From assembly GCA_965222875.1 (NCBI GenBank), contig CBDCVC010000003.1, forward strand, positions 706,567 through 770,566: a stretch of DNA of 64,000 nucleotides. Reading direction: 5' to 3'. How positions within the stretch are numbered: the stretch's first letter is position 1; each line of letters starts with the position of its first letter. This document shows positions 24,651 through 28,500 of the stretch, piece by piece. Under the pieces are notes generated by a model. That model saw nothing but the letters and a program-made list of their open reading frames with translations. It was not told the origin of the DNA and ran no database searches. A program made the translations under genes and the position numbers. The stretch is from Candidatus Multivorans sp. Its GTDB lineage: Bacteria; Acidobacteriota; Thermoanaerobaculia; Multivoradales; Multivoraceae.

Positions 24651-25040
24651 CTAGGTCGGGTCTAAGGGGCTTAGCGGTCTTCGACGCTGGAACCAGAACG
24701 GCTTCCGCTGCAGCTTTTCGCCCGCGATCTCGTTCATCGACAGGGCATCGAAGATGCGGCCGCCTACCATGACGTAGCGGACGAGTTCGGAGTTGCGGAG
24801 GTTCTCGATCGGGGTCCCTTCGAGGCCGATCAGGTCGGCCAGCTTGACGGCCTCGAGCGAGCCGAGGTCGGCCTCCATGCCAATGTGGCGGGCGCCCTTG
24901 ATCGTGCTGGCGATCAGCGCGCGGTGCCGGTTCGTCCCGCCTTGCTCGAACATCCAGATTGCCCGTCGAGTGGCGAGACCTCCGCGCCGGTCGTGGGCGC
25001 CGTGCATGAGCGGCACGCCGGCCGGCCGTGGTCGTTGACG
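24651..25040 (-). pseudogene. Orphan 3'-terminal fragment, a paralogous copy of the C-terminus of the TolB-propeller/amidohydrolase gene at 25597..28953
   Basis: nt 24676-25040 align at about 85% identity with 25597-25960. The encoded peptide ...WMFEQGG..HRALIA...GMEADLGSLEA.KLADLI...SELVRYVMVGGRIFDALSMNEIAGEK.QRKPFWFQR is about 80% identical to the C-terminus of the full gene. Stop codon lost (TAG to TCG). No N-terminal part. Confidence 0.75.
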
Positions 25041-25157
25041 ACGCGGGCGGTGAGCATGCGGTTGTACGCGCCGTCCGGCGCCTTCTGGCAGCGGCCTGCG
25101 CGGGCGTCGATCTCCTTCTGCGGCGTCGTTCAGCAATCGCTCGTTGTCTCAGGCGTC

Positions 25158-25583
25158 TCAGTCTTCGACCAGGCGCTTACCCATGCTCAGAACATCGTCT
25201 TCCGCGTATCCGATCGAGCGGTAGAACTCGGCGGCCTCGGCGTTCGATCGCCTGACGTGGAGGCTGATCTTCGGACAGCCGATCTCGCGCAGCCGTGCTT
25301 CGGCCTCGTCCATCACGAGCCGCCTGAGCCCCTGCTCTCTGCTGTCCGGAGCAACGGCAATATAGTTGGTCCAACCGCGGTGGCCCTCGTACCCTGCCAT
25401 GCCGGTCGCGACCAGCCGGCCGTTGTCGAGTCCGACCAGAAACAGATCCCGCTGGATCCGCAGTTTGCGCTCAATATCCTTCACCGGGTCGTTCCAGGGC
25501 CTGACCAGCTCGCACTCCCGCCACAGGGCGACCACGGCGTCTTGGTCCGCCTTGCGATAGGGGCGGATCTCCAGCCGCTCCAT
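25158..25583 (-). CDS. GNAT-family N-acetyltransferase
   Basis: 141 aa: LVATGMAGYEGHRGWTNYIAVAPDSREQGLRRLVMDEAEARLREIGCPKISLHV is the GNAT motif A region. About 62% GC against about 70% background. Confidence 0.85.
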   Translation of the reverse strand: MERLEIRPYRKADQDAVVALWRECELVRPWNDPVKDIERKLRIQRDLFLVGLDNGRLVATGMAGYEGHRGWTNYIAVAPDSREQGLRRLVMDEAEARLREIGCPKISLHVRRSNAEAAEFYRSIGYAEDDVLSMGKRLVED

Positions 25584-25596
25584 TGACAGTGGGACC

Positions 25597-28500
25597 CTAG
25601 CGCTGGAACCAGAACGGCTTCCGCTGCTGCTTCTCGCCGGCGATCTCGTTCATCGACAGGGCGTCGAAGATGCGGCCGCCGACCATGACGTAGCGAACGA
25701 GCTCGGAGCTGCGGAGGTTGTCGAGCGGGTTCTGTTCGAGGACGATCAGGTCGGCGAGCTTGCCGGCCTCCAGCGAGCCGAGGTCGGCCTCCATGCCGAG
25801 GTAGCGGGCGCCGCTCAACGTGCCGGCGATCAGGGCCCGGTGCGGACTCATCCCGCCCTGCTCGAACATCCACATCTCCCAGTGGGCGGCGAGTCCTTCG
25901 CGCTGGCCGTGGGCGCCGAGCATGATCGGCACGCCGGCCTGGTCGAGCGCGTTGACCACGCGGGCGGTCAGGATGTGGTTGTACTCGCCGTCCGGCGCCT
26001 TCTGGCGGCGGCGGGAGCGGGCGTCGATCTCCTCCTGCGGGACGTAGTTCAGGAGCCGCTCGTTGGCCCAGACGTCGGTGTGTTCGTACCAGTAGTCCTC
26101 GCCCTGGATGCCGCCGTAGGCGACGCCGAGGGTGGGTGTGTTGCCGACCCGGCTGTTGCCCCAGAACTGGATCACGTCGTCGTAGATGGCGCCCACGGAG
26201 AGCGAATGCTCGATACCGGTGTGGCCGTCGGCGACCATCGTCATGTTGTGCTGGAACAGGGCGCCGCCTTCGTTGACGACCAGCATGCCGAGCTCCTGGG
26301 CGGCCGCGACGATCTTCTGGCGCTGGTCGCGGCGCGGCTGGTTGTAGCTCTTGACGCTGAAGGCGCCGGCCTTCTGCAGCCGGCGCAGGTGCTGGACCGC
26401 GTCGTCCGGCGTTTCGATGATGGCCCGAAAGGCGCCCATGGCGCCGTAGAGAATCGTGCCGGTCGCAAACAGCCGCGGGGCTGTGATCTCGCCGGCGCGC
26501 TGCATCTCGCTGGCGGCGAAGAAGGTGCTGGTGTCGGTCGAGGGGTTGTGGATGGTGGTGACGCCGAAGGCGAGCGCGGCGTAGAAGTCGGGGACCTGTT
26601 GCGGCGTGATCTCCTGGCTGCCCGGCGAGCCGTGCCAGTGGACATCGATCAGGCCCGGCATCACGGTTAGCCCTGAGCCGTCGATCACGGTGGCGTCCGC
26701 GGGCACGTCGATCTGCCGCGACGGGCCGATCGCCACGATCCGGTCACCGTCGACGACGACGGTGCCGCGGCGGATGATCTCCATCCCGTCCGCGCCGGCC
26801 ATCGTGATCAGCCGCGCGTCGGTGATCGCGATCTTCCCGGTCGGCCGCCGGGTGTTCACTTCGAAGCCGAGGTCGATGCCTGTTGGAGGAGGAGGCTCGG
26901 CCTCCGTGTCTTCGTCGCCGTCGTCCGCGGCTTCTTCGCCGTCCTCGTCCGCCTCCGGATCCGCAGGCGCGAAGGCTTCCTCCAGCCGCCGCTCGAACAG
27001 CTCCGGTCCCAGGGACCAGTACAGCGTCGAGCTGTCGCCGGAGAAATGCAGGTCGGTGCCGTCGTCGGTGGAGACGTTGCGCACCGGCAGGCCGGGCGTC
27101 TTCGGGCCGACCTCGATCGCCTTCGAGGCCGGTGTGAACGGTACGACATGGGCGTCGAAGCGCTCCGCGAACGCCAGCCAGCGGCCGTCGGGCGACACGC
27201 GCATCTCGGTCGCGACCTTGCTGCCGGCATGATCGCGGGCTTCGGCTTCGCCGGCGCTCAAGAGCGGCAGGCTGCGGAGCACGTGCCGGTCCCAACTTTC
27301 CGTGGCGGTGAAGTAGACGCGCCCGGAGTCGGCGCCGAAGTGGGGGCTGGCGCCGGACCGGGAGATGCGCACCGGCGCGGTCTGGCCGCCGGCAGAGGTA
27401 CGGTAGACGCCCGGGTCCTTCGACCACAACGGGCTGCGGGTGCCGCCGCCGCGGGTCTTGCGGTAGACGACCGTGCCGCCGTCGGGTGAGAACGCGGGCT
27501 CGACGTAGTGGCCGGGCTCGGGCGTGATCGCGCGTCCCTCGCCTCCCGAGGCGCGGGCGATGCGCACCGCGCCGAACTCCTCGTCATGCCAGCTCACATA
27601 GACGATCGACTGCCCGTCGCGCGAGTAGGACGGGTAGAACTCGAAGTGGCCGTCCTGGGTCGTCAGCCGCTGCGCCTCGCCGATCTCCCCGGTTTCGGGG
27701 TTGCGGCTTCGCGTCCACAACCGGCCCAGCGTCTGAAAGACGATCTGGTCGCCGCTTGGGGAAACCTGGGTCCAGCGCAGCATCTTCGTCCGGAAGCTCT
27801 CCGGCGCGGCCTCGAAGTCGAACGCCAGCGCTTCCTTCATCCGGTGGGTCGCGCGGACGCGGAAGGGGATCTCCTGCACCTCCCGGCTCTCGATGTCGAT
27901 CCGGTGCAGGCCGCCCTGCGCCCAGAAGACGATTCCGGCGCTGTCCGGTGTCCAGGCCATCGTGGGGTAGACGCCGTGGACCGCCCAGATCTCCTGCATG
28001 TCGCGGTCGAGAGCATCGTAGATGGGGATGTTCTCGCCGCTTTGCAGATCGTGCAGGAACAGGTGGCTCTGGAATCGGATCCGGCGCACGAAGGCAAGGT
28101 ACTTCCCGTCCGGCGACGGGGTCGGCCGCACCGCGCCGCCGGGGCCTGCGATCACGTTCTCGATCTCGCCGGTCTCGCGGTCGATGCGGCGAATCGAGTA
28201 GATGCCCTCGGCCGAGTTCTTGCCGTACTCGAAGAATCCGCCCGGCGTCGTGTCCTGGCTGAAGTAGACGTATCGCCCGTCGGGCGAGAACGCCGGTTCG
28301 CCGAGGTCCTTCTGATCGTTCGGCTTCTCGTTCAGTTGCAGTCCGCCGCCCTCGCCGCTGGCGTGGTAGAGCCAGATCTCGCCGCTGCCGAGCGAACGGG
28401 TCGACACGAAGTGCTTGCGTGCGGCGATGAAGCGTCCATCCGGGCTCCAGACCGGGTTGTTGACGAGCCGGAAGTCCTCACGGCTGATTTGCCGCGGCTC

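Follow-up and report, generated by a model that had tools for sequence, protein, structure and literature searches.

The window analysed here, meaning the whole 64,000-nucleotide stretch of DNA from a 'Candidatus Multivorans' sp., contains a spacer (23043-25596) lying between two conserved genes. It was compared with the same locus in about 30 related genomes of sponge-associated Acidobacteriota (Thermoanaerobaculia, 'Ca. Multivorans'), which are designated below by L numbers where they need to be told apart. The spacer contains only an MNT gene, a HEPN gene, a GIY-YIG ORF, a second copy of the amidohydrolase gene end (hereafter Y'; the resident copy is Y) and a GNAT gene. The features of the locus are as follows.

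21975-23042, + strand: Iso_dh-family dehydrogenase gene (Pfam), facing the amidohydrolase gene in convergent orientation; core flank on the right side of the spacer, its synteny kept in all close relatives
23113-23806, + strand: MNT (nucleotidyltransferase)/HEPN pair, a type VII toxin-antitoxin-like module; cargo
23934-24536, + strand: ORF of 200 aa with a GIY-YIG nuclease domain (Pfam GIY-YIG, E 5.5e-5); cargo of the second haplotype
24537-24680, no strand: native intergenic region (IGR) of the haplotype gene-IGR-GIY-YIG, contiguous with the relic and aligned to L089, L090 and L091
24681-24683, - strand: former stop codon of Y', now CGA (tcg on the + strand); L089 and L091 have TGA here
24684-25145, - strand: Y', relic, in decay, of the final ~155 amidohydrolase codons, with deletions of 2 nt (-2) at 25123/25124 and of 1 nt (-1) at 25023/25024
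25146-25157, - strand: junction of 12 nt, GACGCCTGAGAC, matching both the native GNAT 3' flank and gene positions 2878-2889; putative site of an illegitimate crossover
25158-25583, - strand: complete GNAT acetyltransferase gene of 141 aa (NCBIfam PRK03624 family), 13 nt past the amidohydrolase stop codon
25597-28953, - strand: intact PD40/TolB-propeller and amidohydrolase gene of 1118 aa (ORF; Pfam PD40, Amidohydro_1 and Amidohydro_3); left core flank of the spacer
25600-26076, - strand: Y, resident copy of the repeat (gene positions 2878-3354, last 159 codons)
26065-26076, - strand: microhomology partner inside the amidohydrolase gene, GACGTCTGGGCC, located by alignment

The amidohydrolase gene was found in the ~30 related genomes at 82-93% nucleotide identity, and its C-terminus is 88-93% conserved over the clade. 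By contrast, the cargo of the spacer varies among genomes, from an empty spacer to GNAT, MNT/HEPN, the HEC-01 candidate defence pair, NERD plus UvrD helicase, or a giant adhesin. All haplotypes of the locus diverge straight after the amidohydrolase stop codon, so that a repeat boundary at this codon requires no att site. Homologous recombination is frequent here. The resident gene indeed switches ancestry near gene position 2750-2930, mosaic ancestry and recombination patches mark the flanks of the locus, and L081 matches the window without any difference from 22075 to 26146, with patches 6-15% diverged at both sides.

The diverged direct repeat near the amidohydrolase 3' end, on which the original prediction was centered, was confirmed by a blastn comparison of the window with itself: 24685-25172 aligned with 25601-26092 at 84.8% identity over 492 nt (E 4.5e-156), and no third copy was found elsewhere in the window. 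The length of about 365 bp first given to it was too short, true homology covering ~477 nt (gene positions 2878-3354) and reaching the GNAT stop codon. As had been described, both copies terminate in ...KPFWFQR with similarity ending at the stop codon, and the GNAT gene alone, of lower GC content (0.643, vs. 0.69 in its flanks), lies between them.

The state of the distal copy was clearly different from that of a functional gene end. Y' is devoid of a start codon and of the 5' 86% of the gene, while 161 codons are open in this region and a 100-aa gene with a Pfam Amidohydro_1 match is annotated there in L081 and L082. It had been presented as an in-frame copy whose stop codon TAG was lost; its last ~120 codons are indeed in frame, but the -1 and -2 deletions lie upstream, and the stop codon is indeed lost, but its probable ancestor is TGA rather than TAG. 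Compared with the consensus of functional copies, Y' displays 71 differences distributed 16:25:30 over codon positions, vs. ~4:4:20 in 32 functional copies (4:4:18 in Y, in line with the others). It is altered at 37 of the 283 columns that are invariant across the 32 functional orthologues, and carries 36 private states, vs. 0-13 in functional copies. The changes, once described as mostly conservative with ~80% amino acid identity, leave 78% identity over the last 100 codons and affect many positions at which all orthologues agree. The proposal that Y' is a piece of a functional homologue rather than an old, decaying duplicate is contradicted by the frameshifts, the lost stop codon, the uniform distribution of changes over codon positions and the altered invariant columns. 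Y' is a pseudogene, with both a disrupted frame and relaxed selection. It is neither a working piece of a gene nor the attachment site of a mobile element, but a dead leftover that marks a seam.

This decay is uneven along the relic. Private states amount to 34/337 before position q363 and 2/125 beyond it (p 0.014 in a permutation test), and altered invariant columns to 29/202 and 2/69, respectively (Fisher p 0.008), the last ~125 nt (24684-24808) being far less decayed than the remainder. This young 3' end looks recently functional, on modest statistics (p ~0.01), although regional variation in rate or a weak constraint could also account for its conservation. For this part, gene conversion between the two copies was considered and rejected, since it is equally near to many lineages (92.9% identity with L012 and L005, vs. 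91.3% with resident Y). Over its whole length, Y' shows 82-85% identity with functional copies, roughly equal for all (84.4% for resident Y), and both copies belong to the same broad sequence type, B. Y' was also considered as the displaced original A-type end, from the lineage of L001, L002, L023 and L025, which is the nearest one in the 5' part of the gene; it is B-type at 27 of the 31 diagnostic sites, and this candidate was discarded. Other candidates concerned the edges of the relic. The 9-mer GTCGAAGAC, which corresponds to the last three GNAT codons, occurs at 24677-24685 and 25161-25169 and thus flanks the relic exactly. A 9-bp target-site duplication, a transposition and a templated 10-nt insertion were envisaged and dismissed, the second 9-mer being the outcome of point changes that turned the native GCTGAAACC of L089/L091 into GTCGAAGACC. 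As regards the DNA after Y', neither an Iso_dh 3' end relic nor the HEC-01 module showed significant similarity to it.

The GNAT gene is a native neighbor of the amidohydrolase gene. It directly follows the amidohydrolase gene, without any second copy, in at least 10 relatives among the sponge-symbiont Acidobacteriota, including L007, L008, L009, L010, L015, L016, L017, L018 and L054, and its length, position and native TGA stop codon are the same in L007, L008, L009, L015, L017, L018 and L054. The unjoined GNAT 3' flank is retained in L008 and L015. In L008 it reads GACGCCTGGGGC, which matches gene positions 2878-2889 (GACGTCTGGGCC) at 10 of 12 nucleotides; at the junction, the window has GACGCCTGAGAC. 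The native GNAT 3' flank before the join is expected to contain the motif GACGCCTGGG, and the junction can be recognized by the signature GAAGAC-TGA-GACGCC...AACGAGCG. Metagenome scans returned no match for the GNAT/Y' junction or for the downstream IGR.

Beyond Y', the window follows a second haplotype. In L091, L089 and L090, a gene end is followed by the same IGR and then by GIY-YIG-HEPN-MNT. In these three genomes, the gene end before the IGR is in frame over 312 nt and has a TGA stop codon, 14 of its 19 differences are at third codon positions, and one of 191 invariant columns is changed. The gene end in L091 is thus apparently intact, as judged from the 312 nt of it after which the contig stops. 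Leftwards from ~24602, the IGR of the window is 90% identical to L083. Homologues of the GIY-YIG ORF form two clusters only among 5.8 G proteins, both at the same locus in relatives.

The relic itself was shared by some relatives and absent from others. The arrangement of the window was found in three assemblies of the species (the window, L081 at 35x and L082). The same GNAT/Y' junction occurs in L021, a genome about 15% diverged and available as a 5.05-Mb chromosome-level record, where the GNAT stop codon is mutated and Y' has an in-frame TAG and an internal deletion (q100-476). There, Y' continues into a native gene end plus HEC-01, as found past the intact gene in L014 and L023. An ancient, fixed structure had been named in the original prediction as an argument against insertion; the structure is indeed old, as the identical junction in a genome as diverged as L021 indicates, yet it has not become fixed across the clade. 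L083 carries the cargo of the window without the relic, its cargo block being 90-96% identical, its GNAT gene 86% and its core genes 83-86%. The L083 lineage appears to have deleted the relic, although a separate join, instead of a deletion from a relic-bearing ancestor, could also account for L083. Y' is not necessary for anything, the L083 lineage doing without it. Independent relics were observed in two other cases: in L012/L037, the gene end was displaced by a Calx-beta giant gene that brought its own gene end, and in L018 a truncated Iso_dh gene is joined to Y q280. Three independent events thus have three breakpoints (gene position 2878, gene position ~2799 and Y q280), which argues against a fixed att site. 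An IS21 insertion is also present in L012/L037, with the target-site duplication CGAGTAC at q100-106. A common origin of this insertion and of the L021 breakpoint (q99) was considered and rejected, the sequences past the two breaks being unrelated, so that the proximity of the two sites is a near-coincidence.

From a mechanistic point of view, we propose, with a probability of roughly 0.7, that Y' is a functionless relic of the amidohydrolase 3' end at the seam of two joined spacer haplotypes, created by an illegitimate join and later spread and reshaped by homologous recombination. One partner molecule would have carried gene-GNAT and the other the gene with other cargo. An illegitimate crossover at the 12 nt of microhomology that the GNAT 3' flank shares with gene positions 2878-2889, with homologous exchange on the other side, would have generated gene-GNAT-[last 477 nt of gene]-other cargo. 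This product would combine the stacked cargo of the two haplotypes and retain, at its seam, a truncated gene end lacking a promoter. The junction is directly visible in the window, whereas the illegitimate mechanism that we infer for it may be akin to homology-facilitated illegitimate recombination (HFIR) or, equivalently, to a single crossover by a small circularized fragment. The relic would then have evolved neutrally, and neutral decay since the join is indeed what Y' displays. The old junction was probably transferred between lineages, or maintained in them, through ordinary homologous recombination, during which the relic may have been used as a right-hand homology arm. Such a use would explain why the cargo beyond Y' is different in L021 despite a common junction, why the last ~125 nt of Y' in the window look recently functional, and why these nucleotides run on into the downstream DNA of the GIY-YIG haplotype. 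The view that the repeat is a footprint of recombination at the terminus of the amidohydrolase gene is therefore supported, and the option of hitch-hiked flanking DNA, put forward at the same time, comes close to the data, since Y' adjoins, without interruption, the DNA natively found downstream in the other haplotype.

A tandem duplication in situ is the most serious competitor, albeit an unlikely one. The same 12-nt microhomology would here have mediated an unequal exchange between sister chromosomes that doubled [Y-GNAT], the second GNAT gene being later deleted or replaced. This would yield the same junction, and would fit with the fact that Y' is no nearer to foreign lineages than to resident Y (84.4% vs. 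82-85%); since both copies are of type B and Y' is equidistant from functional copies, such a duplication keeps some plausibility. It could also account for the presence, right behind Y', of the 9-mer that ends the GNAT gene. However, a remnant of a second GNAT gene was sought behind this 9-mer and not recognized (local alignment to the GNAT end, p 0.17), and the point changes described above suffice to explain it. Moreover, Y' runs straight into the native IGR of a naturally occurring haplotype that lacks GNAT, so that the duplication would need an extra replacement step. An insertion into the gene 3' end by an integrase that was later lost, with the repeat as an attL/attR-type duplication, is far less probable and has been largely refuted. 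An intact replacement end next to a displaced, diverged one does resemble such integrations, and the GC content of the spacer is lower (0.635, vs. ~0.69-0.71). Yet, as originally noted, no integrase is seen: no recombinase was found in the spacer between the conserved flanks, nor among the Pfam families of called genes within ±10 kb, and DNA beyond this distance does not affect the verdict because conserved core genes enclose the spacer. In addition, the repeat encloses only the 426-nt GNAT gene, native without a repeat in at least 10 genomes, the junction uses a pre-existing GNAT flank through a 10/12 microhomology, L083 carries all the cargo without the repeat, so that the insert is not tied to it, and the two other relic events break elsewhere.

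Retention of Y' as a functional small protein, i.e., a C-terminal amidohydrolase fragment of 100-161 aa, or as a regulatory or RNA element under selection, has slightly less credit still. The open frame of 161 codons, the gene called in L081 and L082 and the well-conserved last ~125 nt may evoke such a function. By contrast, two frameshifts lie inside the ORF, substitutions are even over codon positions and affect invariant residues, most of Y' is deleted in L021, the relic is absent from L083, and a scan of 23000-26200 revealed no relevant promoter-like or terminator-like site; a fragment of a TIM-barrel C-terminus is also unlikely to fold. Lastly, a chimeric join of two strain haplotypes during metagenome assembly is the least probable explanation, with a negligible chance of being correct. 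The window is indeed metagenome-derived and both joined haplotypes occur in nature, but the identical structure was recovered in three assemblies and the junction is also present in the chromosome-level genome of another species-level lineage (L021). The frameshifts and 36 private substitutions of Y', absent from every functional allele, moreover indicate that it is not a co-assembled strain variant.

Returning to the joined haplotypes, relic gene ends might more generally act as secondary homology arms, allowing stacking of cargo or defense islands between core genes without an integrase. This extension is tentative, and we consider it somewhat doubtful. As Y' is homologous to a conserved core gene end, incoming DNA from a relative (core gene end plus cargo) could recombine with the relic. 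If it did so there rather than at the resident gene, new cargo would be added behind GNAT and none would be replaced, and the Y-GNAT-Y' unit could be transferred to any haplotype through plain homologous recombination. Hints of this are the junction common to L021 and the window with different cargo, the refreshed 3' ~125 nt, and the existence of at least three independent relics.

These results have consequences for annotation and for our understanding of genome evolution. The 'amidohydrolase family' ORF of 100-161 aa at 24651-25136 should be considered as a pseudogene fragment, neither a gene nor an att site. The locus offers a compact natural record of cargo build-up between two core genes without mobile-element machinery: microhomology-based illegitimate joins, homologous-recombination patches and progressive erosion of seams are visible together in ~30 sponge-symbiont genomes. 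It also constitutes a further example of the displaced 3' end pattern, outside polymorphic-toxin loci. Should relics indeed act as homology arms, this would define an integrase-free route to stacked cargo or defense islands between core genes.

Comparison with known systems places this event among familiar ones. Elements such as e14 and phage 21 in icd, as well as islands targeting tRNA or tmRNA genes, integrate at a gene 3' end and bring a replacement end. A direct repeat of the gene 3' end, with an intact proximal copy and a diverged distal one, is common to these elements and to the present locus. The latter differs in that it has no integrase, no element-sized insert and no fixed core site, the 'insert' being a native neighbor gene. 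As in cargo or defense hotspots, the spacer content is variable between two conserved convergent genes; this label, however, describes a locus rather than a mechanism, and the defense role of the cargo here is putative. In Rhs, CDI and T6SS effector-immunity loci, as in Vibrio cholerae, incoming DNA displaces the old 3' end downstream by means of its own conserved gene part; old ends persist as orphan fragments, cargo builds up, and arrays spread by homologous recombination (Kirchberger et al., 2017, PMC5361080). Persistence of a displaced 3' end and accumulation of cargo are found here too. In those systems, however, the displaced ends are variable toxin domains accompanied by immunity genes, whose retention is thought to be selected, whereas here the gene product is a conserved hydrolase, the end that was displaced is a homologous one without any use, and GNAT, the GIY-YIG ORF and a toxin-antitoxin-like pair make up the cargo stacked downstream. 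The variable C-terminal domains and immunity genes typical of polymorphic toxins are indeed not found in this conserved PD40 and amidohydrolase enzyme.

The locus also resembles HFIR and single crossovers of circularized fragments, which combine one side of extended homology with one microhomology junction, require no dedicated recombinase, and trap foreign or allelic DNA beside a conserved anchor. HFIR was defined experimentally in transformable or conjugating bacteria, whereas it is deduced here from an old natural product in uncultivated symbionts, and in classical HFIR recipient DNA is usually deleted rather than duplicated. A novel junction at a short microhomology (10/12) between otherwise unrelated sequences, as in HFIR, is nevertheless what the locus displays. 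In E. coli conjugation, most events of this class left the insert flanked by duplicated stretches, 109-950 bp long, of the homologous gene end (PMC3240628), a geometry that matches the one described here. The event is ordinary in kind and does not represent a new kind of system.

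The locus lies in a sponge-associated Acidobacteriota (Thermoanaerobaculia, 'Candidatus Multivorans') and contains the following features, in minus-strand reading order.

Features of the locus (window positions)
29004-30863, first in reading order: TPP enzyme
28953..25597, minus strand: PD40/TolB-propeller + amidohydrolase gene, 1118 aa; its 3' end is the resident copy, Y
25583..25158, minus strand: GNAT gene, 141 aa, after a 13-nt gap
24684-25145, minus strand: extra copy of the amidohydrolase 3' end (Y', the relic), past the GNAT gene
23934-24536, opposite strand to the amidohydrolase gene: GIY-YIG-domain ORF, 200 aa
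23113-23806, opposite strand: overlapping MNT nucleotidyltransferase/HEPN pair, type VII toxin-antitoxin-like
21975-23042, opposite strand: Iso_dh-family dehydrogenase, then homoaconitase-like and homocitrate-synthase-like genes

A scan with one genome per species yielded 80 loci (L-numbers below); in about 30 of these, whose amidohydrolase genes share 82-93% nucleotide identity, gene order is conserved without exception: TPP, amidohydrolase, variable spacer, convergent Iso_dh, homoaconitase and homocitrate synthase. The spacer is empty in L002, L006, L013, L025 and L045, and contains GNAT only (L007, L009, L015, L016, L054), GNAT with MNT/HEPN (L008, L010, L017), MNT/HEPN only (L001, L019), or larger cargo, namely the HEC-01 candidate defence pair (AAA_21 + DUF4276), a NERD+UvrD helicase or a 1700-1900-aa Calx-beta protein. 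The AAA_21 ATPase and DUF4276 pair of L021 (13918-15697) hits HEC-01, a PADLOC candidate system, with E 1e-114 and 4e-60; the pair recurs as cargo (also in L010, L014, L018, L023, L026 and L042), and its stop codon abuts that of the amidohydrolase gene. Homologues of HEPN are very numerous (>3000 clusters at E <= 1e-30), and the HEPN gene of L083 has an internal deletion. In L083, the TPP enzyme and the amidohydrolase gene are separated by a 744-aa DUF5916 gene (12352-14586) that the window lacks, so the left side of the amidohydrolase gene is variable too.

Self-comparison bore out the diverged direct repeat of the original prediction, with 84.8% identity between Y' and Y over 492 nt (24685-25172 versus 25601-26092, E 4.5e-156); the predicted 365 nt was too short, as homology extends to the GNAT stop codon. 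This is the only extra copy of the amidohydrolase 3' end in the window. At the other limit, similarity indeed ends at the amidohydrolase stop codon, as predicted, because all haplotypes (alternative versions of the spacer) diverge right after that point; this exact end, which had suggested an attL/attR-type duplication, requires no att site. The resident TAG is CGA in the relic, which also carries one -1 and one -2 deletion, and the original frame is therefore kept only in its last ~120 codons.

Y' was compared, by alignment, with the corresponding segment from 32 functional orthologues. It differs from their consensus at 71 sites, distributed 16:25:30 over codon positions 1:2:3, and the functional copies at 19-54 sites each, about 4:4:20. 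Among 283 columns invariant in all functional copies, Y' has changed at 37, of which 31 are at codon position 1 or 2, and its last 100 codons share 78% amino-acid identity with the resident end. On these substitution patterns, Y' is undergoing neutral decay, and they do not bear out the earlier view of a functional homologue piece with mostly conservative changes. A functional mini-protein encoded by the relic is unlikely. Its 161-codon ORF does stay open through the frameshifted stretch, but at 68% GC this is nothing unusual. Decay is uneven: up to position 362, private states are present at 34 of 337 sites, and beyond it at 2 of 125 (change-point permutation p 0.014), and invariant columns changed at 29/202 versus 2/69 (Fisher p 0.008). 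This would fit a later homologous crossover inside the relic, importing the present GIY-YIG block.

The GNAT gene is complete, with the same ...VED-TGA end as in nine relatives. The 12 nt past its stop, GACGCCTGAGAC (25157..25146), match the native GNAT 3' flank of L008 and L015, GACGCCTGGGGC, after which unrelated sequence comes in both, and also amidohydrolase gene positions 2878-2889, GACGTCTGGGCC; from 25145 on, the window follows the amidohydrolase gene. Hence a GNAT flank that already existed became fused to internal sequence of a gene copy. The microhomology at this GNAT|Y' join (10/12) is the signature of illegitimate recombination. An exact 9-mer, GTCGAAGAC, flanks the relic (24677-24685 and 25161-25169; 3 copies in the window versus 1.2 expected). 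It was rejected as a target-site duplication, the comparison with L089/L091 indicating that the second copy came from point changes in native downstream sequence, and it is probably due to chance.

The other side of the relic can be traced to a GNAT-less haplotype. L089, L090 and L091 have the order Iso_dh, MNT, HEPN, GIY-YIG, IGR and amidohydrolase gene end. Over the 312 nt visible, this end looks functional, being in frame with a TGA stop, with 14 of 19 differences from consensus at third codon positions and 1/191 invariant columns changed. Compared with it, the relic lost its stop through a TGA-to-CGA point change and a 1-nt insertion. Their IGR aligns with window 24537-24680, so relic, IGR and GIY-YIG/HEPN/MNT block form a contiguous piece of the GNAT-less haplotype. 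Among 5.8 billion proteins, the GIY-YIG ORF has homologues in two clusters only, which both lie at this locus in close relatives (lengths 170, 200 and 211 aa); the domain is similar to the GIY-YIG portion of DEDD-exonuclease/Cho-like proteins.

An assembly artefact is unlikely. L082 and the window are one and the same sequence (99.98% identity), and L081, a sister strain, shows no difference between 22075 and 26146, entire structure included. L081 is virtually identical elsewhere too, outside 6-15% diverged patches at 19750-22075, 26146-27145, 29750-30750 and 32000-32750 (up to 15% in the homoaconitase large subunit), which look like homologous-recombination tracts imported from other species-level lineages. 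The chromosome-level genome L021, about 14-15% diverged in the amidohydrolase gene and GNAT, has the same GNAT|Y' junction, which is therefore old or was passed between lineages. Erosion has gone further in its relic: an in-frame TAG interrupts Y', positions 100-476 are missing, and the GNAT stop has changed from TGA to GGA, so that the GNAT ORF (13401-13865) runs 13 codons into the relic (154 versus 141 aa). The last 14 nt of the gene are then followed by HEC-01, exactly the arrangement that L014 and L023 show past their intact gene; at least one exchange of the cargo behind the relic has thus taken place. In L083 (22 contigs, one of 1.02-Mb) the order is gene-GNAT-IGR-GIY-YIG-HEPN-MNT, and the relic is absent; the GNAT flank breaks off after GACGC, where IGR begins, and ~540 nt including Y' are lacking relative to the window. 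Deletion of the seam would account for this most simply.

Other relics occur at this hotspot. In L012 and L037, an intact gene end is followed by a Calx-beta giant gene, a second gene end starting about 69 nt upstream of Y, and GNAT. An IS21-family element (IstA rve + IstB; L012 19813-22333, L037 ~19850-21999, partly deleted in the latter) later split this second end, with a 7-bp target-site duplication, CGAGTAC. In L018 (15665-16897), a second Iso_dh gene, truncated by ~32 nt at its start, continues at Y position 280 into the final 211 nt of the amidohydrolase gene, another seam between two haplotypes. Breakpoints differ among the window, L012/L037 and L018 events, which have no common core site.

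The resident gene is itself mosaic. Its first ~2750 nt are closest to L001, L002, L023 and L025 (94-97% identity), and from ~position 2930 it belongs to the type seen in the remaining relatives. Y' shares this second type at 27/31 diagnostic sites, which rules it out as the displaced original end of an L001-like lineage. The ancestry switch (gene position 2750-2930, window ~26025-26205) lies no more than ~100 nt from where the duplicated segment starts; this may be coincidence, with crossovers favoured in the gene's most conserved part, or may be tied to the duplication.

The best-supported explanation is an illegitimate, microhomology-mediated join of two alleles of a cargo hotspot. On this reading, GNAT and other cargo were stacked by the join, and the seam kept a useless gene end; decay, spread by homologous recombination and deletion, in part or in full, came afterwards. 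In-situ tandem duplication with later replacement is the less probable alternative. The recombination footprint of the original prediction holds as hitch-hiked flanking DNA, the relic being contiguous with GNAT-less haplotype DNA, and fails as site-specific integration: despite the repeat limit at a gene terminus, an integrase-mediated origin is unlikely, with no common core site, a GNAT flank joined at microhomology and, in agreement with the lack of a visible integrase already reported, none in the window's spacer or within +-10 kb.

Structures of this kind are known, and the locus adds a further example. The proposed join works like homology-facilitated illegitimate recombination; in E. coli, most such events duplicated 109-950 bp of the homologous gene end (PMC3240628). 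A second parallel is the 'displacement' model put forward for effector-immunity arrays of Rhs and T6SS (PMC5361080); the locus itself lies outside those toxin families.
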